The notes under the pieces are model-generated. The model searched no databases. It was not told where the DNA came from and saw only the letters and a list, made by a program, of their open reading frames with translations. A stretch of 43,440 nucleotides of DNA from Escherichia coli (GTDB taxonomy: Bacteria > Pseudomonadota > Gammaproteobacteria > Enterobacterales > Enterobacteriaceae): assembly GCF_003334255.1 (NCBI RefSeq), contig NZ_QOWU01000048.1; one strand, 5' to 3'. The position numbers and the translations under genes were made by a program. Position 1 is the first letter of the stretch; each line of letters opens with the position of its first letter. Positions 1 through 12,800 of the stretch are shown piece after piece.

Positions 1-50
1 AGCTGATAGAAACAGAAGCCACTGGAGCACCTCAAAAACACCATCATACA

Positions 51-1361
51 CTAAATCAGTAAGTTGGCAGCATCACCTCCCTGTTTAAAATCATAATTTG
101 GTTGTTCTGTTCTTGAGTTATTAAGTAGAGTTCTTATCAGTGTTTGCCAAGCATGATTGATAAATTTATTTTCTGATTCTTTAAAATATCGTCTGATTAA
201 AGCACATAAATCTTCGACACTTTTCTGACGAGCGCTAGCTGCCCAACGGCCCCCTTCGGTTTGCACCATTGAACGTTGTACACTGTCTCCTAACTGAGCG
301 ATAAATTTCTGTTCATCGTCAAGTTGCATGTTTTCATTTATGATTAATTCATACAAAGCAAGAAAAACAGCTTGATAGTAACGAGGACATTCTTGAGATG
401 AAGATGCATTGCCCAGAATGTGTGATCTAAAGTTCAAATTATTTGCATCAAATAATTTTTGAATCATCTCATAAACGAAGAGGTAATTATTGACAATTTT
501 ATCTGCACCATTTGTCTGAATGTAATTCTCTAATTGAGTTCGTGTATGGATTGCATGACTCGTCGAACCTTCACCGTAAAATGTATCGAGCGATGTTGAT
601 CCTGATGTTGGCTTATCATCTAAAAATATATAGCCCAAGATATTTGCAACTAACTCTTCATCGTCAGAGTCTCTAATGCTAGGCCTACTAATGATATGAT
701 TTCTAATATAGAAATGATTGTCTATATTTATTCCATAATCGAGTCCATCATTGCAAATTGATATGTTATGTATTTTATTCAGTCCCATTATATCGCTATG
801 TGTAGTATCTCCTCTTATAATTGTCGATATTTTCCTTACTAACTCTGAAAAATTACTAACGCACCCCGCACTTCGTAGTTCTTGTTTTGATAAAATTTTA
901 CCATTGGAATTTATGCGTCGAAACACTTCGTCAATGTGGTCCTCTGTTGAAGAGTATTCAGATATAGCAAATCTATAGCGAGCAATTAATGTAGAACTTT
1001 CGCGGGATAGCACTGGCTCTTTTTGTTGAAGTTTACCACTGTCTTTTAGTTGTTTTGTTAATGCAATGGCATCTAAATTAAAGTATTTACCATTTAATGA
1101 AAATCGCTGCTCAATAAAACTCATTAAAGCTTCTAGTCTTTGCATTCCATCAAGGATTTCTCTTTTGTTGTCAATGGAAACAAACAATAGCAAAGGGATA
1201 GGGTATTGCTGAGTCATTGATGAAATCAGTGCTGTTTTCTCTTCGAGGGACCATACTAATTTTCTTTGGTATCTTCGATTTATAATTAATTTATCATCCA
1301 GATACCACTCGTATAATTCTTCTGCTGTCTTGGAGTCAATATCTAAGTTTTCATTAGCCAT
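51..1361 (-). CDS. DUF262 (ParB/Srx-like NTPase fold, GmrSD N-terminal-type) domain protein, 436 aa
   Basis: N-terminal 'RRYQRKLVW' and 'DGMQRLEAL' match the DUF262 signature (DGQQR-type motif). ATG start at 1361. Sits in an AT-rich block (1-1645) that contrasts with the GC-rich pem/rep backbone. No recognisable C-terminal HNH/DUF1524 motif seen. Confidence 0.6.
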   Translation of the reverse strand: MANENLDIDSKTAEELYEWYLDDKLIINRRYQRKLVWSLEEKTALISSMTQQYPIPLLLFVSIDNKREILDGMQRLEALMSFIEQRFSLNGKYFNLDAIALTKQLKDSGKLQQKEPVLSRESSTLIARYRFAISEYSSTEDHIDEVFRRINSNGKILSKQELRSAGCVSNFSELVRKISTIIRGDTTHSDIMGLNKIHNISICNDGLDYGINIDNHFYIRNHIISRPSIRDSDDEELVANILGYIFLDDKPTSGSTSLDTFYGEGSTSHAIHTRTQLENYIQTNGADKIVNNYLFVYEMIQKLFDANNLNFRSHILGNASSSQECPRYYQAVFLALYELIINENMQLDDEQKFIAQLGDSVQRSMVQTEGGRWAASARQKSVEDLCALIRRYFKESENKFINHAWQTLIRTLLNNSRTEQPNYDFKQGGDAANLLI

Positions 1362-1645
1362 TAGATGTATCTCGAGTATTTAGTTAAGAAACTGATAGGT
1401 CAGTATTTGCATCAATGTTCATTGAATTTGTATCCGAAGTCAATCTGATGTAGGAACTTCAAAACTGCGCAAAACACGCAAATACGCACAAGAAAGTAGG
1501 GCTGCGCTTGGAATTCGGAAAATAAACCACATCAAAACTACTTTTTAGCCAAATAACGTTTGGGAATCACCAGAATGGTGGGACAACAGCGGTTTTAGTG
1601 CCCTAAATCGTACGTTTTCATCCAGTTGCCCCTCAAACCCCATGT

Positions 1646-1978
1646 TCAAGTCAGAATAGTGGACAGGCGGCCAAGAACTTCGTTCATGATAGTCTCCGGA
1701 ACCCGTTCGAGTCGTTTTCCGCCCCGTGCTTTCATATCAATTGTCCGGGGTTGATCGCAACGTACAACACCTGTGGTACGTATGCCAACACCATCCAACG
1801 ACACCGCAAAGCCGGCAGTGCGGGCAAAATTGCCTCCGCTGGTTACGGGCACAACAACAGGCAGGCGGGTCACGCGATTAAAGGCCGCCGGTGTGACAAT
1901 CAGCACCGGCCGCGTTCCCTGCTGCTCATGACCTGCGGTAGGATCAAGCGAGACAAGCCAGATTTCCCCTCTTTCCAT
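1646..1978 (-). CDS. pemK: PemK/Kid toxin (endoribonuclease), 110 aa
   Basis: Translation from the internal ATG (MERGEIWLVSLDPTAGHEQQGTRPVLIVTPAAFN...) is essentially identical to R100/R1 PemK/Kid as I remember it. The ORF-track start at 2110 is a TTG over-extension. Confidence 0.9.
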   Translation of the reverse strand: MERGEIWLVSLDPTAGHEQQGTRPVLIVTPAAFNRVTRLPVVVPVTSGGNFARTAGFAVSLDGVGIRTTGVVRCDQPRTIDMKARGGKRLERVPETIMNEVLGRLSTILT

Positions 1979-1979
1979 G

Positions 1980-2237
1980 TCAGATTTCCTCCTGACCAGT
2001 CGCCGGTGCATCCAGCCATTCTCGTTCTTCAGCTGATATTTCAGCATTCGGATCACACTGTGCCAGTAGCTCAGCCAGTGAATATTGCGGGCGTCTGTAC
2101 GGCTCAACAATCAGCCGGCCATTATCAATGACCATGCCAACTTCATTATCTGTGCCCAGAGACAGCGCATTCAGCAGTGCCGGTGGGACGGTCAGCATAA
2201 CTGAGCCGCCAACCCTCTTCAGTCGGGTGGTATGCAT
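1980..2237 (-). CDS. pemI: PemI/Kis antitoxin, 85 aa
   Basis: MHTTRLKRVGGSVMLTVPPALLNAL... matches PemI/Kis. Lies immediately upstream of pemK with the typical 1-2 nt stop/start junction. Confidence 0.9.
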   Translation of the reverse strand: MHTTRLKRVGGSVMLTVPPALLNALSLGTDNEVGMVIDNGRLIVEPYRRPQYSLAELLAQCDPNAEISAEEREWLDAPATGQEEI

Positions 2238-2329
2238 TCTTCACCTCCATAAAAGTTATATTTAAATATAACATCCACTAAAAAAACACACCAGGCTTTA
2301 ACGCACAATGTTTAATAAAAATATAACTT

Positions 2330-2983
2330 TCAACCAAACAGTAAACCCAGCGTGGTTGCTTCCATATGCAGCAATACCGGCAGCAGCAGGCCACCACTTC
2401 TGATCCTGGCCACTGATGTAATCAACCCCACCAGGAACAGTTCTGCCAGTGTCAGCAGGTTCTGATACTGGCTGTGCGCGGCGACGAACAACAACGACGT
2501 TATCAGCGCCCCCAGCCACATCGTCCAGCAGTACCGTGAACGGAAGACGTTCAGCATAATCCCCCGGAACAGCGTTTCCTCATTCAACGGGGCAAGGATA
2601 AAGATGGTCAGCAACGTCAGGATCACGTCAGGTATGGACTTATCGGCAAAAAGTTTCGTCATAAATGGCTCAGCAGGCAGAGCCAGCGCCTTACCGAGCA
2701 GAAATACACCGACATACACCACGGCCATCGCACCGACCAGCCACGGTACGCCAACGTTGCGCAGCTGACCAACGACCGGTAGCGGAGCTATCCAACGGCG
2801 GTATACCAGGAAAACACACAGCAGGTACATCAGAACAGTACCATGACTGAAGAACAAATAGTTTTTTCCTGATCCATAAAGCAGAACGGCCTGCTCCATG
2901 ACAAATCTGGCTCCCCAACTAATGCCCCATGCAGCCAGCATAACCAGCATAAACTGCAGATATTGATTACGTGTTTGAATCAT
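2330..2983 (-). CDS. CPBP-family intramembrane metalloprotease (CAAX protease/Abi-like), 217 aa
   Basis: Multi-pass hydrophobic protein with the CPBP motifs 'EETLFRG' (EExxxR) and 'FVAAHS' (FxxxH). ATG at 2983. Confidence 0.65.
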   Translation of the reverse strand: MIQTRNQYLQFMLVMLAAWGISWGARFVMEQAVLLYGSGKNYLFFSHGTVLMYLLCVFLVYRRWIAPLPVVGQLRNVGVPWLVGAMAVVYVGVFLLGKALALPAEPFMTKLFADKSIPDVILTLLTIFILAPLNEETLFRGIMLNVFRSRYCWTMWLGALITSLLFVAAHSQYQNLLTLAELFLVGLITSVARIRSGGLLLPVLLHMEATTLGLLFG

Positions 2984-3599
2984 TGCATCGCCTGTAAATT
3001 TTTAACTTGTCCTATTTTTGTCATTACCACGTATATACACATGTATAACAATTCAGATATCGTTACCAGGATATGCCGCATCAGCGGCATGGAAGGCGGC
3101 ACTCTGTTGTTTCATATGATACAGGAGTAAAACCGCCGAAGCCCGGCGTAAGCCGGTACTGATTGATAGATTTCACCTTACCCATCCCCAGCCCTGCCAG
3201 ACCATACCCGCTTTCAGCCATGAGAGAGCTTCTGTGCGCGGTCGGAGTGGTCCCGACGAGGGTTTACCCGAAGTCGGGGCGTATCTCCGCGTTAGCGGGC
3301 CGTGAGGGCCGCTTACGAGCGTGTACTGAGAACTTCCAGCGAGAAGACTGACAGCGATGAAGATGTAGTTACAACATTCATAATTAAAAGCGACTCTGTT
3401 CCGGCCCTTTGGGCCGGGGCGGGGCCGCTTTTCAGTTATGAGGGAGGGGCTTTGTGGTTTCGGTTCTGCGCTGGACCGGGGTTTTTCTGGAGGTTGTTTT
3501 TGTGTGTTGTAACTAAAGTGGCTCCGGTCGGGGCCCGCCGCTTGCGGTGGGAGGTGCATATCTGTCTGTCCACAGGACAGGCAGTGAATAGGTTTTCTT

Positions 3600-3920
3600 T
3601 TTAAATGAATGTAATTAAGTAGTTTAAAGGAGATATAAACAGGTGTTTAAAAGATACATTGCACCCTGTAAGACTGGCGGCTGGCGCTTTATGACATGAA
3701 CGGTTGTAACCTTATGGGGAAGTCCCTTGCAGTTAAATGTGGATAAGCAAAATTCCCCGTCGCTGAGGCGTATTTTGTATTAAAAACAGGGGGAATCGGA
3801 TGCTCCAGAAGGTGGATGATGAGATTGTTTTTTGCATGCGACGCTGTTTTTTTGTGCACCGGCGGGCTTCAGGCGTGCGGATGCCTCCGGCGCAGGCCGG
3901 ATTATTCTGAGGAGATCACT
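3600..3920. other. RepFIIA vegetative origin region (oriR) downstream of repA1
   Basis: AT-rich block directly 3' of repA1 containing a DnaA box (TGTGGATAA, complement of TTATCCACA) at about 3749-3757. Position matches the known IncFII replicon layout. Confidence 0.5.
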
Positions 3921-3921
3921 T

Positions 3922-4779
3922 TCAGGGAGAAGCTGTGGCCAGCCGGCTGTAATTGCGGTTACGTGACAGAATCATGCGCTCCTTCACACGACGCTCCACT
4001 TCGCGTTTTACCGCCTCACCATTAGCAGTGAAGCGTCCTTCCGAGATTTCACGCGTCAGCTGCCGTTTCACCAGGGTGACGATATCCTGACGTTCTCTGT
4101 TCGCATCACGACGCGCACGGGCACGTTTTATTCCACGGGACTTAAGCTCTGTCTGGTAACTGCGGAAACGCTCACGCACAAAACGCCAGGCTTTCGCTAT
4201 CAGCTCATCCATACCCAGGGTATCCAGCCCCTGCTTTTTGCGCTGTTTGTTTTCCCATTCAACACGACTGCGGCGCGCAGCTGCCACTGCATCCTCAGAC
4301 ACATCAAGGGCAGCAAACAGAGCCAGTGTGAACGTGATGTCGGTCGGAATGTAGCACCCGATAAGCGGGTCATATTCCGTCTGGTAGGTAATCAGTCCCA
4401 GCTCTGACAGGAACGTCAGGGCCCGGGTGGCACGGGTGATGGAGAGTTTTCCTGCACCGGACTCTGTCGCCAGTCCGCACTCAATGGCCAGTGTGGTGAT
4501 GGAACACTGGACGCGGTTGGCCAGCGGGTCATAGTGGAAACACAGCCCCTGCAGCAGCGCATCAATAGCCCGTCGACGCAGCACCGGTGGCATGCGCCGA
4601 CGCAGACCACGGGAACGGGCATGCGCCACATGAATGGCGAAATCAAAACGGGAGGTGAAGCCCACCGCCTTTTCCATCAGTTTTTCGCAGAACTTCAGCG
4701 TTCCGGCACCTTCACGGGGAGTGAACACCGGATTCGGGTTCTTTACCTGGCGGTAATACGTTTGGTGAAGATCAGTCAC
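3922..4779 (-). CDS. repA1: RepA1 replication initiator (IncFII/RepFIIA), 285 aa, GTG start
   Basis: Protein (V/M)[36 protein letters not shown]... matches R100/R1 RepA1 over its full length. GTG start at 4779..4777 is preceded by AGGA and overlapped by the tap stop codon. ORF-track start at 4791 is an over-extension. Confidence 0.9.
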
Positions 4780-4846
4780 ACCATCCTGCACTTACAATGC
4801 GCAGAAGGAGCGAGCACAGAAAGAAGTCTTGAACTTTTCCGGGCAT
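4772..4846 (-). CDS. tap: tap (repA6) leader peptide, 24 aa, translationally coupled to repA1
   Basis: Minus-strand translation from the ATG at 4846: [24 protein letters not shown], which matches the R1/R100 Tap peptide as I recall it. Its TGA lies just 3' of the repA1 GTG. Confidence 0.75.
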
Positions 4847-4869
4847 ATAACTATACTCCCCGCATAGCT

Positions 4870-4956
4870 GAATTGTTGGCTATACGGTTTAAGTGGGCCC
4901 CGGTAATCTTTTCGTACTCGCCAAAGTTGAAGAAGATTATCGGGGTTTTTGCTTTT
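4870..4956 (+). ncRNA. copA: CopA antisense RNA (copy-number control), approximate bounds
   Basis: Lies on the strand opposite the repA leader, between copB and tap. Imperfect long hairpin (CCCCGGTAATCTT...AAGATTATCGGGG) followed by TTTTTGCTTTT at about 4898-4956, as expected for the CopA terminator stem-loop. 5' end not determined. Confidence 0.5.
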
Positions 4957-5070
4957 CTGGCTCCTGTAAATCCACATCAGAACCAGTTCCTTGCCACCTT
5001 ACGGCGTGGCCAGCCACAAAATTCCTTAAACGATCAGTAATCTAGCATGCTACGCCACAAAGTAAAGTCT

Positions 5071-5331
5071 TTACTTTAGTATATCCAGTCTCTGCAGTTC
5101 ATCTTTGATGATTTTCTCAACGAACTGAGCCTGTGTTATCCCCTCTCTCTCGCAGTACTCAACCATGAGATCTTTCAGAGGATTTTTGACAAAAACTTTT
5201 ATCTCTTTGTGTGTAAGACGTTTTCTTGCAACAGCGGCCATTTGTTTCTCAGAGTCAGTCATAGGCTTACCTCTGCGCACAAACCGCTTTTGACTCAATG
5301 AGGAAGTCACTGCATTTTCTGTCTGCGACAT
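5071..5331 (-). CDS. repA2: RepA2/CopB transcriptional repressor of repA, 86 aa
   Basis: [39 protein letters not shown]... matches CopB. ATG at 5331 with a GAGGAGG RBS upstream. Confidence 0.9.
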
Positions 5332-5494
5332 CTCGCCTCCTCAATACTCAAACAGGGATCGTTTCGCAGAGGATACTACAGTTTTTTGAAATCAGCGACT
5401 TGAGAATTGTGACGAAGATCTGTGTTGGCGCACAAATCAACGGGGATTACTGTCGTTTAATGTGATTTAAACTGTGAAATAGTATGGTTTTCAG

Positions 5495-5577
5495 TTATGG
5501 AAACGCCGGGAGCGGGGAAAACTTGCTTTTTCCCGTTTCCGGGGTTGGACAACTGAGCAACGCGAAGGCGTCAGCTA
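5495..5577. repeat. Copy 1 of an ~80 bp hairpin-containing repeat (second copy at about 17475-17552)
   Basis: Shared blocks 'GGAAACGCCGGG' and 'CCGGGGTTGGACAAC.GAGCAA.GCGA.GGCGTCAG' flank a copy-specific hairpin. Lies between the DUF2726-like gene and repA2. Confidence 0.5.
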
Positions 5578-6161
5578 CGATGTTCCGGGGACTGCTGATC
5601 AGCCCCTGTTGTATTCAGCCATTCTCCGGTCATCTGCAGCAGTTTTCTGGCATCGTGGCTTCTGAGCAACGGAATACCAGCCTGCCTCAGAACCTCTTCC
5701 AGAAAAATATCCCGGCGTCTGCGTTCCGGTCGTAAATGTCTGGCATCATCCAGCTCTACTGCTGCAACAATACTGAACGAAAGCCGCTCAACGATAACCA
5801 CATCAACATGCCACTGAGACACCATCCTGAATAACTGCCACCACTGGCGTGATCGTGGCCGGATATTCCCGTTCAGCTGGACGATATCCGCGACCCGTAC
5901 CTGCGGACACAGATACCACCGCTTCATATCCACAATTCTGAACAGTCCTTTCATAAAACTGACTTCCCTTTCTGTCAGCAGCGTCTTCTGACGTTGCCAG
6001 TATTCACCGCCGGACAGTATTCGCTCTGCATCACCGGTCCGTATACCTGCCGCATGCAACTGCATCAGCAAAGGAGAATGCTGATTTACACTTCTGAGGA
6101 TAATCCGGATAAGTAACGCTGCAATAATCAGAACAATGAGAATAAAAATAATCAGCTTCAT
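5571..6161 (-). CDS. N-terminally membrane-anchored protein, probably DUF2726-type, 196 aa
   Basis: Hydrophobic N-terminus (MKLIIFILIVLIIAALLIRIIL) followed by a soluble domain. Occupies the position and has the size of the conserved IncF backbone gene next to the hha-like gene. Domain assignment is from memory, not motif-proven. Confidence 0.5.
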   Translation of the reverse strand: MKLIIFILIVLIIAALLIRIILRSVNQHSPLLMQLHAAGIRTGDAERILSGGEYWQRQKTLLTEREVSFMKGLFRIVDMKRWYLCPQVRVADIVQLNGNIRPRSRQWWQLFRMVSQWHVDVVIVERLSFSIVAAVELDDARHLRPERRRRDIFLEEVLRQAGIPLLRSHDARKLLQMTGEWLNTTGADQQSPEHRS

Positions 6162-6198
6162 TGTTTATCTGCTCCTGGTAATTAATTATGCTGAATTA

Positions 6199-6408
6199 TT
6201 ACCTTACATATTTCCATATCTCTTTTGGTATCCTGTCATATAACTTTCCGGTGATTAATTCCGCTAACCGGTGGTCTGCTGCTGAATTAAATGATTCACG
6301 TTCACTGGTTGATAAACTGTCTCTGTTTTTATGAATAATTTTTTCCAGCGTATTGACTGATGAACATCGCCGTAACTGATACAGCCATTCCTGTTTTGTT
6401 TTTGCCAT
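6199..6408 (-). CDS. Hha/YmoA-family expression modulator (RmoA-like), 69 aa
   Basis: ...[22 protein letters not shown]...[30 protein letters not shown] closely parallels Hha ([23 protein letters not shown]...[22 protein letters not shown]). Confidence 0.85.
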   Translation of the reverse strand: [69 protein letters not shown]

Positions 6409-6453
6409 TTTTATTCCCGCTGAGAACAGATGAATGATAAGATTGCCAGCGCT

Positions 6454-6915
6454 TTATTTACGGTGTCTCCATATCCAGGGGGGAACCGGATCAGCATCTG
6501 ACCAGAGCCCACGTTTTTGTTGTCTGGCTTCGTTCTGAAAGACAGGCAGCGCGGGATCTGTGTTGTACTGCTCATATACCCAGGCAGCCCCGGCCCGGAC
6601 CATAAACTGATTAACATTCATTCCGTCTGGTGCATAAACCTGCCCGAGAATACGACCATAACGATCTCGCTGAAAATATGTGACGGTAACCGTTTTTCCT
6701 GCAACCAGTGATTTCATCATGTCTGTCGACCACCGGCCATAATCCTGTTTCTTTTCCGGTGCATCAATATTTACCAGCCTGATCCGCACCGCCTTCCGTG
6801 AGTCCATGACCTCGATGGTATCACCGTCCAGTACACGAACAACCCGTCCATGAATATCTGCACACAATACCGGCCATGAAAAGATAAATAATACCAGTGG
6901 AATATATTTCCTCAT
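6454..6915 (-). CDS. Secreted thermonuclease (staphylococcal nuclease/SNase-like), about 153 aa
   Basis: Signal-peptide-like N-terminus (MRKYIPLVLFIFSWPVLCA) followed by SNase-like blocks ('DGDT', 'RIRLVNIDAPE', 'YGR', 'GLWSD'). Start trimmed to the ATG at 6915, which has a GGAGA RBS. ORF-track start at 6975 is an over-extension. Confidence 0.8.
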   Translation of the reverse strand: MRKYIPLVLFIFSWPVLCADIHGRVVRVLDGDTIEVMDSRKAVRIRLVNIDAPEKKQDYGRWSTDMMKSLVAGKTVTVTYFQRDRYGRILGQVYAPDGMNVNQFMVRAGAAWVYEQYNTDPALPVFQNEARQQKRGLWSDADPVPPWIWRHRK

Positions 6916-6993
6916 GTTATTCTCCATATCAGATAAATAGCACCTGTATTTCATGCATCCTGAATATTGCAGCACACACTGAATAACACCTTA

Positions 6994-7015
6994 TTTTGTG
7001 AAATTAATCACAAAA
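6994..7015. promoter_or_regulatory. CRP-like palindrome TGTGA-N6-TCACA upstream of the nuclease gene
   Basis: Sequence TTTTGTGAAATTAATCACAAAA has perfect TGTGA/TCACA half-sites with a 6-nt spacer, about 90 bp upstream of the nuclease ATG. Confidence 0.35.
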
Positions 7016-7472
7016 TATAAAATCACGACTTAATACGGAAAAAACTCTGTGCTACTCAGAACTGTCCGGTCATACTTCCCGACCGGATATTAAAAAAAGC
7101 AAATCTCATGCATTATTCAGCCTTCTGAATCCCTGGAGTAATGAAGGCTGCTTTTTCGTTACACCCTTCCCCGGCAGCGCCGGTGGCAGTGTTCAGCCCT
7201 TTTTCGGGCAAACTGCTGCCAGTCTGTCCGGGGAGCAGACTGCGCAGCCCGTAGCCATGCCTCAGCGGCTCCCGGCCAGTCCCCCCTGACTTCCAGCCGG
7301 ACAGCCCGGCGTCCGACCTGCCGGTAGCGCCATACCCCGGAGTTTTGCGAATCACGCCCTGTTCCGTTCATTTTCCTTCCCCCTTTAATCCAGGCCGGTG
7401 AATGTGTTATAAATTTTTATAACCTTCTTCTGCCGGGTATGGAAGAAGGTTTCAGAGAAGCCTTATTTTTCC

Positions 7473-7504
7473 GCCTCCTTTAGTGTGAAGGAGGCTTTTT
7501 TATT
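7473..7504 (+). terminator. Intrinsic-terminator-like hairpin (GCCTCCTT-N8-AGGAGGC followed by TTTTTTATT) at the finO 3' end
   Basis: Perfect 7-8 bp GC-rich stem followed by a T-run on the plus strand. Overlaps the finO stop codon. May terminate plus-strand read-through or act bidirectionally. Confidence 0.4.
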
Positions 7505-8060
7505 GTTCATCAAGCACGGCCTGAAGTTCTGCCTTTATCCGGTTCTGGCGGCGGATTTTATCCAGACGCTCTGCCGCATACACTTCTTCCTCCTGAGAAA
7601 TATGCTCCGTCACATACCCTTCCGTGTCATACCGGCAGGCACCGGCTTTCATGGCACACAGATAGCTTTCTGAACGGGTGATGGCCTTCAGCGCCCTGCG
7701 CAGTTTTTTATGCGAGAGCGGGATATTCCGCTGCGCCACGTCTTCCAGTAACACGTCCCGGATACCGCAGGCCAGAAGTCGGGGTGTGTCACCGTCAAAT
7801 AATCCCGGCCACCAGGGTTTCAGGGTGTTCACGGCCTCATCCAGCGAGGGCAGGTTCAGATAAATGGACAGCGCCTGTCTGGCCTGCGCTTTTTTTGCTG
7901 TCAGCTCTGCTTCCCGGGCAGCCTTCTCCGCCAGTTTCTGCTTTTTCACCTTCCATTTTGGTGGCGTGGTGACATTGATGATGGTTTTCCGGCTCCGGGT
8001 CGGTGTTTCCCCTTCCGTTTTCCGTTTCAGTGTCAGTACCGGTCGTTTCTGCTCTGTCAT
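7500..8060 (-). CDS. finO: FinO fertility-inhibition RNA chaperone, 186 aa (intact)
   Basis: [25 protein letters not shown]... with a Lys/Arg-rich N-terminus matches FinO. Full length, with no IS interruption. Confidence 0.9.
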
Positions 8061-8162
8061 GATTGCCCTGACCTTTGTGAAAATATGTCCTCCAGGTCGT
8101 TGAAACTACTCACTATGATATTAAGCTGACCTCAACGACCTCTGACATATTAATACCGACAA

Positions 8163-9023
8163 TTAAAGATGTTTTTTAAACCATTGCGTCTGTACTGCCG
8201 CCACACGTTCAAAAAACGCGCCTTCATAAATATCATAATGGCATGCGTCAGCTTCCTCGTATAATTCCTTAGTACCAGAAGCAACAGCATCATATAAGGC
8301 TTTTCCCTGTTCTGGTGGATTAACACTATCCTGGCCGGCAATAACAATCAAAACTGGGCACTGTACTTTGGCTGCGCTCTCTGCCGGTTTATATTGCAAC
8401 GTCTCCATAACCGTAAGGAAAGGTATTTTTATATCCATTTCAGGATACTGACCTTTTACCTTCTCGAAGAATACCTTTGATTCATTATCACTCAGTACCC
8501 GGGTAACCCCCACAAACATCTCTTTCCCGGTGTTTTTCTTCTTCTCTGCCATTTTATTCAGCGTGGACAGAAAAGACGCTCTCTCCGATTCATTCATCTC
8601 TCCGGTAACCAGAACATCACCGTCAGCAAAAGCCAGCTGGCTGACAATACATTTTACGCGTTGGTCCTGCGCAGCTGCACTGAAGACATGCCCCCCTCCC
8701 AGCGATGTTCCCCATAACCCAATACGCTGATTATCAATACATTCCTGCTTTTCTGCCCAATTGATAACTGAAATAATATCTTCGGTCTGCATTGCAGGAA
8801 CCAGACGCCCTCGTTCTCCATCACTCTCACCGAATCCTCGATAATCAAAAGTAATCGTTGCGAATCCTGCTTCTGTGAAGGCATTCGCAAAGCAAGGGAG
8901 CAGAACATTCCTGATACCGCAAAACCCATGGCATAAGATAATCAAAGGATGTTTTATATTTCCTTCAGGAACACGAAATGTCAGGGCAATACCTTCAGAG
9001 AGTTTGTGATCCGTAATTTTCAT
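8163..9023 (-). CDS. Alpha/beta-hydrolase-fold protein (esterase/dienelactone-hydrolase-like), 286 aa
   Basis: Nucleophile elbow 'GLWGTSLGGG' (G-x-S-x-G), 'HGFCG' oxyanion region, and C-terminal Asp/His candidates. Sits between traX and finO, where F-like plasmids carry variable cargo. Confidence 0.75.
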   Translation of the reverse strand: MKITDHKLSEGIALTFRVPEGNIKHPLIILCHGFCGIRNVLLPCFANAFTEAGFATITFDYRGFGESDGERGRLVPAMQTEDIISVINWAEKQECIDNQRIGLWGTSLGGGHVFSAAAQDQRVKCIVSQLAFADGDVLVTGEMNESERASFLSTLNKMAEKKKNTGKEMFVGVTRVLSDNESKVFFEKVKGQYPEMDIKIPFLTVMETLQYKPAESAAKVQCPVLIVIAGQDSVNPPEQGKALYDAVASGTKELYEEADACHYDIYEGAFFERVAAVQTQWFKKHL

Positions 9024-9081
9024 AAATATCCTGTGTTATGTTGTTTATTAATAATCAGAATCAGCGTCAGTATCATACCAG

Positions 9082-9828
9082 TCACAACGCCAGAACGCCC
9101 AGCACAGCCAGATGACAGGCGTAGAATACCGGGAAAAAATCCCCGGGCCAGAAACGGGGTAATGATTTTCCTGCACACGACACCAGACCAACGGTCAGCA
9201 CCGTCATTACAAGACCGGCCACCGCCGCTGCATCACTGGAGGCAAGGTTAAGTGCCGGAATAACGGCCAGCAGGCATGCAAGCAGCGCCAGACGTTCCGC
9301 TCTGTCTTCCGCCCGGTACAGTCGGTAACTGACCGCCAGCATCAGCAGCCCGGCAATGCCGTAACTGGTGCCGGACAAAGGCCCCCACAGGGCCATCAGA
9401 AGAATGGCCGCTGCTGTACGCCACCCACTGCGCGTTTCACACCACGTCAGCACCTGTGCCGCCACTGCAAAGGCAAACAGGATATTCCCCTCATACCAGG
9501 GAAAGCCGGCCAGATAATATGCGAACTGGGCAATAATTCCCCATCCCCACAGCCGGTTAATGGCCGGTTGCCGGATATGCGCATGACGGGACAGATTCAG
9601 CCCCCACACCAGGGCAAACAGCGGAAAGGCTCCTCGCCCGGCCAGAAACATCCATTCCTGCTTCAGCTGGAATATCAGATTGATGTGGTCCAGTACCATC
9701 AGCACCAGCGCCACCGTTTTGATGATATCCCGCTGTCCGGGTGACCAGACCAGAAACGACTGCAACCAGGTATCGGTCCGTGCAGCCAGTGAATCGTTAC
9801 GTGTCGTGTTCGTGTTATCCGTTGTCAT
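9082..9828 (-). CDS. traX: TraX F-pilin N-acetylase, 248 aa
   Basis: MTTDNTNTTRNDSLAARTDTWLQSFLVWSPGQRD... polytopic membrane protein matching F TraX. Start trimmed to the ATG at 9828, just 3' of the traI stop. ORF-track start at 10293 overlaps traI and is rejected. Confidence 0.85.
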   Translation of the reverse strand: MTTDNTNTTRNDSLAARTDTWLQSFLVWSPGQRDIIKTVALVLMVLDHINLIFQLKQEWMFLAGRGAFPLFALVWGLNLSRHAHIRQPAINRLWGWGIIAQFAYYLAGFPWYEGNILFAFAVAAQVLTWCETRSGWRTAAAILLMALWGPLSGTSYGIAGLLMLAVSYRLYRAEDRAERLALLACLLAVIPALNLASSDAAAVAGLVMTVLTVGLVSCAGKSLPRFWPGDFFPVFYACHLAVLGVLAL

Positions 9829-9847
9829 CAGTGTTTGTCTTCCTGTA

Positions 9848-12800
9848 TCAGTCTCCGCCCAGGGTTTTCTCTTTCTGCAGGTCACGAACCATATCCCGCT
9901 CCATCTGCTGCAGACGCTCCTGCAGCAGATTTTCCCGGGCAACCTCCCGGACCGCTTCCCGCTCCCGTTGTGATTCACGCAGCACACTCTCCGGCAGTGC
10001 GGTTTCCCGTTCAGATATGGCAGACCGGTCACGCTCCTGTCCGGCAATATCCCTGACAGCCAGCTCTGTTTTGCCGTCCGGCAGGTCAGGTTTGTTCTCT
10101 GCCATTTTCCTGACAATTTCATCTGCGCGGCGTTCCGTTTCACGGCGGATGGCCTCTTCAGCCTGCCGCTGTGCCAGTACCTCTGCCGTGACCGGTTCGC
10201 CATTTCCGGCACCCGGCTGGACGCTGTTGTCCGGGATATCCCCCCACACGCGGCCACCGGTGATGGCACCGGGATTCCACGGGCGACCTTCACCGGCGAT
10301 TCTTACCACCACACCACTGTCAGGATTATCACGGGCAATCCGGACGCCATCCTGCATATTATCAGCCAGCAGGCTCTCTCCGTTACGGCTGCCCTGCAGG
10401 GCCACGAACTGCGCATCCCCGCTGCCTTTCACCCGTCCTTCACCACTGAATCCCCGCAGCCCGTTTCCGTCATCCGTGGTCAGTGGGTTCAGCCAGATAC
10501 CAGCTGACTTGCCGTTACGGTCAAACGCCGGCAGTGCCACATGCGGCTGCGGATATTTACGTCCCGGTGCAATAAACCGTGCAGGGCTGTCTCCCCCGGC
10601 CAGCCCTGCCTGACGGAGAACGGCACGGCCTGCCGCCACGTCCCGCAGTTCCCGTGCCGTACTGAACAGCCGCTGCGCATTCATGACCTCCCGGTCCGGT
10701 TTCGGCTCCAGCACATCGTGGGCAGTTCCTTTCTGTACGGCATTGTTAATGGCATCCGTCCAGCCCTGACGGTTATCGGTGTACACCTGCACATGCTGCT
10801 TCATACGCGACAGGGCCACGTAGGCTGACTCAAAGCCGGCCATCAGTTTCCGGTTACCTTCCGTGCCTTCAAGCGCGATGGCAAAGGTTTCACTCGCCCC
10901 CTGCGCACCGTGGGCGGTGATGGCATAAGCCAGGTCAATATGTTGCTCTGCCCGCTCCTGGCCGGGGCGAATCACCCGGGTCTGCTGTCCGTCTGACAGC
11001 GTGACACTGTCACCGGAAACCGCTGTCACCGTCCAGACGCTGTTGGCCACATAACCGCGCTCCCGGTCACTCTTCGTGAAGCGCATCCGGTCGCCGGTCC
11101 CCACCCGGATTTTGTCCGGGGTGTACAGTGTGACACCTTCAGCCACCGCCTCCCGGGGCGAAATCAGCCGCGTGTTACCTTCCGCATCCTCCAGGGTTAT
11201 CAGCCCGTCATCCTTGCTGATACCGGCAATCCGGTGATACACACTATCCACCAGGGCAAGGGCATCCGGGTTATTCTCCCAGGTGGAGAGACGACGCAGC
11301 TCCCCGTCACGTATATTCGCTGTGTTCAGGACAGGCACCATGACCTGCTCTTTCCCCAGCTCACCGGCCTTTTCCCGTGCATCATGAATCATGCTGTTCA
11401 GTACGCGCCGGTCCTCATTCAGGTGCGTGACAATCAGCGTCTGCTCCCGTGCTTCCGGTGTCCTGCCGGTATAGTCGCGGACAATGGCTTCATACAGTGT
11501 CATGGGGACATCCGGAAAAGTCTCACCTTTCAGCATCGCCTTCTGCTGCGCTTCTGCCAGTTTCGCTTCCTGGCTGTGACTGAACTCCGTCACGGAGTGC
11601 TCCGGTGCCCATGCGCCCTCCTGACGGGGAACCTGAGACGGTTTCACACTCTCAAGCCCGGACAGTGCCCTTTCCACATCCCGGTTAATCAGGCTGTATA
11701 CCGCCTCCCGCAGTTCCGGCGTCTGACGCACAATCTCCTTCATGATGACCACATCGGCAGCACTGCGCGTCTGCTGGAGACGGAAAGGCTGACCGGGCGC
11801 GATGGCCTGCAGCTGGTCCGTGTCACCACTGGCCACGGCACGACCGCCACCGGCCGCAATCAGGGCGTATGCCCGTGCCATGTCGGTATTGCCCACCATT
11901 GAGCTCTCATCGAGCAGGAACAGCGTGTTGCTGAAATCCGGCGTTTCTCCGCTGCGCTGCTGCAGCTGCGTGTCATGCAGAAAGGACGCCAGCGTCTGTG
12001 CATCCACGCCGGCGCTGCGCATCTCACCGACCGCACGGTGCGTGGGCCCCAGCCCCACAACTCGGGGACGCTCACTCGCCGGCAGCATGTTCACGGCTGA
12101 CATCACCGCCCGGAACTGTGTGGTCTTACCCACCCCGGCATACCCCTGCACCACCGTGAAACGGTCGGACGTTTCCAGTATCATGCGGGTGGCGGCACGC
12201 TGTCCTGATGTCAGTTTCTCCATGAGTTCGCCAGGTACTCTCTCCATCAGCGGCGTGACCGCCTCCTTACCTTCGAGAATATGGCGAAGAATACTTTTTT
12301 CTGCCTCATACGACGCACGGGAAACCAGCAGGCCTGTGCCATAGCCTTTTGCCACATCCACATACAGTAAGTCACCGCGTTTTATCTGCGCATTGATTTC
12401 CCCTCCCAGTTCAGTAAAACCGGTTCCTTCTGCAGCAAACGACTTCGCCTCTGTCAGCAGGTCCACCATGCTGAAGGCCAGGTTTTTACTTTCCAGCACA
12501 GGAAGGGCCAGATGAATGGCCTGCTGTGCCGGCGTGTGCAGCCCGGTTTTCTGCAGACTGATAGCGGTTTCCAGCGATGTCTCACCGGCCCGCGCCTTTA
12601 TCTGCTCAGAAACCACCGTAAAGGAGGGATGGCGGGCAAGTTTTTCCGCAGTACGGGTTTCATCCAGTGAGGAATACAGCCGGACATCACGACCGCTGCG
12701 GGCCAGACCGTTCAGGGTGGCGTTGTCCATTGCCATCTGTGTGACGGAGGCAAACACCGTCGCACTGTCACTGACGGAATGCCCGGGCGTTTCCACCCAG

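Follow-up and report, generated by a model that had tools for sequence, protein, structure and literature searches.

AidH and AiiM, together with AidA of Acinetobacter, are N-acyl-homoserine lactone (AHL) lactonases of the alpha/beta-hydrolase fold. UilS has in common with these enzymes the fold class and the proposed lactone-opening chemistry of a serine hydrolase, but it is distant from them and forms a separate lineage. The founder of the UilS family was described in Serratia marcescens RM66262 (Tuttobene et al., mBio 2024; PMC11633161). A uilS mutant of this strain left C10-AHL, the endogenous long-chain AHLs, and the AHLs of P. aeruginosa undegraded in biosensor assays, complementation brought AHL degradation back, and E. 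coli TOP10 gained the ability to remove C10-AHL when UilS was expressed (PMC11633161). The activity is not secreted, and the Serratia gene, regulated through both LuxR/AHL and CpxR/urea, aids competition as well as catheter-associated urinary tract infection (PMC11633161). UilS is 28% identical to AidA, and the evidence for its activity consists of whole-cell biosensor assays; the main text reports neither purified UilS nor HPLC, mass spectrometry, or acidification tests (PMC11633161). Because the founding evidence is a whole-cell bioassay, the name lactonase reflects assignment and not demonstration of the reaction: ring opening by UilS is assumed from its annotation and from the 28% identity to AidA, and simple signal loss, an acylase activity, or an indirect effect are possible alternative explanations of the founding result.

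The other system of direct relevance is orf286 of the F-like plasmids R100 and R6-5, located upstream of the fertility inhibition gene finO. According to work of van Biesen and Frost from 1992, orf286 reportedly raises the concentration of finO mRNA, and plasmids of the R6-5 type are said to repress transfer more strongly. The gene analyzed here lies in a 43,440-nucleotide stretch of an Escherichia coli assembly (contig NZ_QOWU01000048.1; this whole stretch is called the window below) and is the long-known orf286 itself, a very common and already named gene whose database records go back decades. As a discovery it is minor, since the open reading frame has been available from the time R100 and R6-5 were sequenced and now bears a curated family name. 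Its significance is that a gene present in about 36% of the complete E. coli genomes owes its AHL lactonase label entirely to homology with a single Serratia enzyme; a biochemical check on the plasmid clade would validate or correct thousands of annotations. A full-text literature search returned no experimental study of the plasmid uilS/orf286 and none tying UilS to F-like plasmids, nor did it yield relevant text on orf286 and finO mRNA.

The uilS gene of R100-type plasmids and its family

An earlier note on this DNA, made from its letters alone, had placed an alpha/beta-hydrolase gene at positions 8163-9023, at the junction of traX and finO. The open reading frame, a match to the Pfam family Abhydrolase_1, and the annotated neighbors confirmed both the gene and its place. 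The gene, its translation signal, and its neighbors are located as follows.

8163..9023, minus strand: uilS (historical orf286), from the ATG at 9023 to the TAA at 8163, 286 aa (open reading frame list)
9029..9032, minus strand: Shine-Dalgarno sequence AGGA, 5 nt 5' of the uilS ATG (read from the sequence)
9082..9828, minus strand: traX (pilin acetylase), the upstream neighbor and final gene of the tra operon proper (annotation of identical records)
7500..8060, minus strand: finO (fertility inhibition RNA chaperone), the downstream neighbor (annotation of identical records)

The calculated mass of the uilS product (31,674 Da) agrees with the name 'Uncharacterized 31.7 kDa protein in traX-finO intergenic region', under which its exact sequence is listed; at least 1000 contigs carry this sequence. 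Other records give the exact protein the older automatic annotation "dienelactone hydrolase", and genes 100% identical to it are labeled uilS in RefSeq (2026). Positions 7400-9900 of the window are 99.92% identical in nucleotide sequence to R100, the accession WP_000704523.1 denotes both the R100 protein and a copy 100% identical to that of the window, and this 2.5-kb region is 100% identical in the plasmids pUTI89, pRS218, and pJJ1886. The orf286 of R100/R6-5 is the same gene without substantive difference, and the flanks are also R100-like. Positions 1-7400 of the window form an R100-like IncFII backbone in the gene order annotated in R100 (best full-length matches 99.6% identical), with genes for a GmrSD/DUF262 nuclease-domain protein, a CPBP protease, repA/tap/copB, a DUF2726 protein, hha, a thermonuclease, and an ANR-family regulator; the R100 annotation of the equivalent stretch also lists PemI/PemK.

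The window protein matched the NCBIfam equivalog NF047920.1, "UilS family quorum-quenching N-acyl-homoserine lactonase", with 508.9 bits (E = 4.6e-153; residues 2-286 on positions 1-285 of the 285-position profile), which lies above the curated cut-off of 400 bits and compares with 519.4 bits for the founding S. marcescens UilS cluster. Relatives sharing 45% and 38% identity with the query scored 385 and 252, below the cut-off. Aligned with Serratia UilS, the plasmid protein is 63% identical and 77% similar over 286 residues without a gap. Both proteins are 286 aa long, have the same triad, lack a signal peptide, and obtain nearly equal scores from the family model, and both occur in uropathogens (pUTI89 for the plasmid gene, a urinary tract infection isolate for Serratia UilS). 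The earlier note had called the substrate unknown. At the level of the family this is outdated, given the equivalog match above cut-off and the RefSeq name uilS; for the plasmid protein itself, the AHL assignment is one by homology.

The two genes differ in their genomic setting. Serratia uilS is chromosomal, adjoins luxR, and is under LuxR/AHL and CpxR/urea control, whereas the plasmid gene lies between traX and finO without such neighbors. The luxR synteny was absent at the window gene, and clustering of the neighbors at 68 homologous loci, chromosomal and plasmid, gave no neighbor family common to more than 7 of them. Genomic context was therefore dropped as support for a role in AHL metabolism, no LuxR-type partner recurring among these loci; with no widely common neighbor family, context is uninformative on that role. 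S. marcescens itself was not returned by a scan of species-representative genomes, and its protein was recovered by a second protein search. The miss is probably explained by the choice of representative, an environmental strain, as an environmental S. marcescens strain without uilS has been described (PMC11633161).

Active site and candidate substrate

The Pfam scan assigned residues 26-268 of the uilS protein to Abhydrolase_1 (E = 2.5e-35), with further matches to Hydrolase_4 and Peptidase_S15, and a protein search returned 742 homologs at E<=1e-10; together with the equivalog match, this exceeds chance by a wide margin. An alignment of the query with 22 homologs, 63-94% identical to it, was used to locate the active-site residues and to build an AF2 model. 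The predicted residues are encoded at the following positions.

8703..8705, minus strand: codon of Ser107, predicted nucleophile in the GTSLG elbow (residues 105-109) after beta5; invariant (alignment and AF2 model)
8328..8330, minus strand: codon of Asp232, predicted catalytic acid after beta7; invariant, aligned with the Asp of DcsB 'ELDTMSPP'
8238..8240, minus strand: codon of His262, predicted catalytic base after beta8; invariant, aligned with the His of YcjY and DcsB
8922..8930, minus strand: codons of His32-Gly33-Phe34, HG-type oxyanion motif in LCHGFCG (invariant L30-G36), at the end of strand 25-31

Ser107, Asp232, His262, the LCHGFCG motif, and about 100 other columns were invariant among the 23 sequences. 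The G-x-S-x-G motif that the earlier note had found clear is thus the GTSLG of residues 105-109, and the loss of the triad that it had named as a refutation did not occur in any of the aligned proteins. His32-Gly33-Phe34 presumably contribute the oxyanion hole, by analogy with alpha/beta hydrolases in general. A run of six G residues (8691-8696, in the codons of Gly109-Gly111) lies just past the catalytic Ser codon.

In the AF2 model (pLDDT 89.9, pTM 0.90), the strands and helices follow the canonical order: strand 96-106 is followed by Ser107 and helix 108-119, the acid comes after strand 224-229 and the His after strand 252-257, and a helical cap lies between residues 135 and 217. The N-terminus, MKITDHKLSEGIALTFRV, makes up the first two beta strands of the model (pLDDT 95) and lacks a hydrophobic leader, from which we infer that the protein is cytoplasmic and lacks a signal peptide. 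The profile and structure searches proposed earlier led to the UilS family NF047920 and, as the nearest structures, to serine hydrolases. Foldseek against the PDB matched the model best to 7QJM (TM 0.94), followed by YcjY (TM 0.87) and DcsB (TM 0.86), with further matches to PA2218, GrgF, and then feruloyl/chlorogenic esterases and monoacylglycerol lipases. The triad is in register in the sequence alignments to 7QJM, DcsB, and YcjY. The Chloroflexus alpha/beta hydrolase '202' (7QJM), YcjY (5XB6), DcsB (7D78), and PA2218 (2HDW) share the core and the helical cap with the uilS protein, but their identity to it is just 21-26% (sequence E-values down to 4e-33), and none of them is described as acting on AHLs. 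DcsB is a fungal thioesterase, and E. coli YcjY has a Cys at the aligned nucleophile position, in contrast to Ser107 of the uilS protein. Among the 60 listed PDB sequence matches and the 50 top-ranking Foldseek matches, none is described as an AHL lactonase, and AidH is absent; these matches comprise polyester, feruloyl, and monoacylglycerol esterases, the thioesterase DcsB, and uncharacterized proteins.

Two other enzyme classes were considered and rejected. An AHL lactonase of the metallo-beta-lactamase fold (AiiA type) was excluded by the alpha/beta-hydrolase model and by the Pfam scan, in which Lactamase_B was absent and all matches were to alpha/beta-hydrolase families. The "dienelactone hydrolase" of the older annotation also denotes an alpha/beta hydrolase acting on a lactone; however, the best domain for Pfam DLH (PF01738) was non-significant (E = 0.035, 14.1 bits), and classical dienelactone hydrolases have a Cys nucleophile, whereas the uilS protein has a Ser.

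The window open reading frame almost certainly encodes a functional alpha/beta hydrolase of the UilS family. It is scarcely credible that it represents a decaying remnant or pseudo-enzyme without catalysis, although some copies are broken and many database entries are partial. One such copy, in NZ_CP061340.1, carries a frameshift at or beside the six-G run, where the hydrolase CDS is left unannotated; the frameshift could be either real slippage or a homopolymer sequencing error. Against decay, the triad and the oxyanion motif are invariant, a full-length open reading frame is present in about 1900 E. coli genomes, and pairwise dN/dS between plasmid uilS alleles is 0.08-0.17, well below 1, so that the protein is under purifying selection. 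Furthermore, a proteomics table lists the uilS product of pO157 in its columns of protein fold changes (PMC11125564). The conserved triad and the purifying selection effectively refute a pseudo-enzyme.

With regard to the substrate, we consider it probable, with moderate confidence, that the plasmid protein is a cytoplasmic Ser-His-Asp hydrolase that opens AHL lactones. The AHL substrate is transferred from the 63%-identical Serratia enzyme, and the lactone-opening chemistry is likewise putative. In the proposed mechanism, Ser107 in the GTSLG elbow of this soluble 31.7-kDa enzyme, activated by His262 and Asp232, would attack the ring ester of N-acyl-homoserine lactones that have diffused into the cell; the oxyanion would be stabilized by the HGF motif and the residue following Ser107, and the products would be inactive N-acyl-homoserines (quorum quenching). 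To our knowledge, E. coli, Klebsiella, and Salmonella produce no AHLs of their own, so that the plasmid would let its host erase the signals of neighbors, such as Pseudomonas, Serratia, and Yersinia. The host's own eavesdropping through SdiA might also be damped.

The score of the plasmid protein, equal to that of the founder, and the more than 100 invariant columns, which include the whole active-site framework, argue for one conserved function in the family. Both observations speak against an active serine esterase that acts on some other substrate (another lactone, a small aryl or acyl ester, a thioester, or a monoacylglycerol) and has weak or absent AHL activity, as does the removal of C10-AHL by E. 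coli expressing the founder. We regard such an esterase, the main rival reading, as somewhat unlikely, although several points are consistent with it: the nearest structures are 7QJM, YcjY, DcsB, GrgF, feruloyl/chlorogenic esterases, and monoacylglycerol lipases; Pfam recognizes just generic hydrolase families; the gene neighborhoods are unrelated to quorum sensing; and the founder, known from whole-cell bioassays, is 63% identical to the plasmid protein, a distance at which the substrate range can shift. AHL hydrolysis is thus the function we favor for the plasmid protein.

The traX-finO junction across F-like plasmids

The earlier note had described the junction as one at which F-like plasmids vary and had suggested comparing the traX-finO interval among them. 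The comparison revealed a dimorphism between a short form, in which F, pSLT, and pU12A_A carry 48 bp, and a long form of 1015 bp, which in the window occupies the following segment.

8062..9076, minus strand: long-form segment, uilS with both spacers, R100-type versus F-type (1015 bp, about 43% GC)

Homology with the short-form plasmids ends at 9077, 5 bases beyond the traX stop, and restarts at 8061, 1 base before the finO ATG. A repeat search found no direct or inverted repeats at 8062 or 9076, and a mobile insertion marked by flanking repeats was accordingly dropped. By eye, the short and long spacers are weakly alike over their first ~15 nt and final ~16 nt. The two forms therefore most plausibly differ by a simple indel or replacement, in one direction or the other.

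The base composition of the gene is foreign as well: its GC content is 44%, compared with 57.7% for traX, 54.9% for finO, and 60.1% for traI (55-60% for neighboring genes). Among 5426 complete E. coli genomes, uilS was present in 1934 (about 36%; 2018 records), finO in 3452 (4009 records), and traX in 3384 (3890 records), and 2050 of the 2057 places of uilS were plasmid-borne. From the 2018 uilS and 4009 finO records, the long form is found in about half of the E. coli replicons with finO. Of the 5000 PLSDB records that best match the 2.5-kb query, 2071 extend over 80% or more of it. Because uilS is absent from F and pSLT, which are transfer-proficient, and from about half of the finO-positive E. 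coli replicons, it does not belong to the transfer machinery, in line with the earlier note; its GC content is also unlike that of the tra genes of the F-like tra/trb machinery.

The term "cargo" used in the earlier note implies a recent pick-up, and this part of its description did not hold. A diverged F-like contig encodes a 79%-identical protein at the same traI-traX-uilS-finO junction, in a colinear region of 76% nucleotide identity; its TraX shares only 70% and its FinO only 78% identity with the window proteins, and there, too, uilS has a lower GC content (47%) than traX (63%). The gene is therefore an old accessory of the backbone that has diverged together with its neighbors. The traX of F is 90% identical to that of the window and thus closer to it than the traX of the diverged long-form contig, and the short form may for this reason represent a secondary loss; as F-like plasmids recombine, we make no firm call on the direction.

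Intact copies were also observed in other surroundings, two of which lack a functioning transfer system. In the first of these, the non-conjugative plasmid pO157, uilS is intact beside a truncated traI. In the second, pRM9872-1 of E. coli O145, an intact uilS lies between IS3 and IS66 elements with just a stub of the traX 3' end. In ~163-kb plasmids, the surroundings of the gene include an IS91-type transposase and, on the other strand, a gene with a ProQ/FinO domain; the pRM9872-1 and ~163-kb plasmid alleles outside the traX-finO junction are 91.5% identical in nucleotide or 88% in amino-acid sequence. Scaffold2 (107 kb) of K. pneumoniae ATCC 13883 carries two family members, a traX-finO copy (95% identical) and a 70%-identical paralog by a Tn3-family transposase remnant, a serine recombinase, and a DMT-type exporter; the paralog gives the family another mobile setting, independent of the first. 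Two copies are likewise present in Enterobacter asburiae TN152. Copies or fragments 94-98% identical at the protein level were found on contigs of 350-2196 bp in assemblies labeled Clostridiales, Collinsella, Terrisporobacter mayombei, and Acinetobacter idrijaensis, and these look like contamination or mis-binned fragments of E. coli plasmids rather than real occurrences.

Transcription of uilS and the link to finO

A promoter and terminator scan gave no sigma-70 match on the minus strand upstream of uilS, the sole promoter-like match on that strand being inside the gene, and no terminator-like site in either the traX-uilS or the uilS-finO spacer. A promoter and terminator belonging to uilS itself were thus unsupported. 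Diverged alleles differ very little in the 58-nt traX-uilS spacer. Judging from this arrangement, uilS and finO are probably co-transcribed, and uilS would share a single mRNA with finO, produced by transcription that reads through from the tra operon. The 102-nt uilS-finO spacer contains a hairpin.

8094..8141, minus strand: uilS-finO spacer hairpin, 10-bp perfect stem AGGTCGTTGA / TCAACGACCT without a T-run

The 136-nt fold containing this hairpin has a dG of -34.3 kcal/mol (z = -3.16). Its stem persists in the pO157 allele despite one change, which is wobble-compatible, and is unchanged in the plasmid of 76% nucleotide identity, where the loop has diverged. The hairpin may serve the finO message as an element of RNA stability or processing or as a protein-binding site. 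Compared with the short form, the long form swaps the entire finO leader, including the ribosome-binding region. A 15-nt inverted repeat between uilS codons 12-16 (8976-8990) and the finO ribosome-binding region (8062-8076) has 14 of 15 positions complementary, with an estimated chance expectation of about 0.04 such pairs in 1.3 kb. It was rejected as a conserved structure among 8 alleles, the pO157-type finO arm adding two mismatches and two G-U wobbles without compensation, and is probably due to chance or specific to a lineage.

The hairpin and the terminator-free spacer fit both co-transcription and the effect that orf286 is said to have on finO mRNA. Together with the replaced finO leader and the preservation of the hairpin at 76% nucleotide identity, that reported 1992 finding would be compatible with a segment kept mainly for its RNA, as a 5' extension that boosts the finO message and hence FinOP repression, the enzyme being secondary. 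We consider this quite improbable. The dN/dS values indicate selection on the protein and not merely on the RNA, uilS is intact without finO in pRM9872-1, and hundreds of chromosomal homologs have no finO nearby. Since the protein is under purifying selection and copies exist without finO, an RNA effect is not the sole reason for retention; an effect on finO at the RNA level and an enzymatic role could coexist.

Taken as a whole, the proposal that R100-type plasmids carry, and spread to about a third of sequenced E. coli, a working quorum-quenching enzyme that silences AHL-producing competitors, blunts SdiA, and is tied to fertility inhibition by co-transcription with finO is tentative, and we put it forward with more doubt than conviction. 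If it is true, common resistance and virulence plasmids (pUTI89, pO157, and the relatives of R100) would interfere with interspecies signaling, and plasmids with uilS could confound SdiA and AHL experiments in the strains that carry them.

Just past the finO stop, at 7446-7495, two adjacent hairpins were called as plus-strand terminators, with T-runs on the plus strand; they may represent a bidirectional terminator or the end of a convergent transcript.
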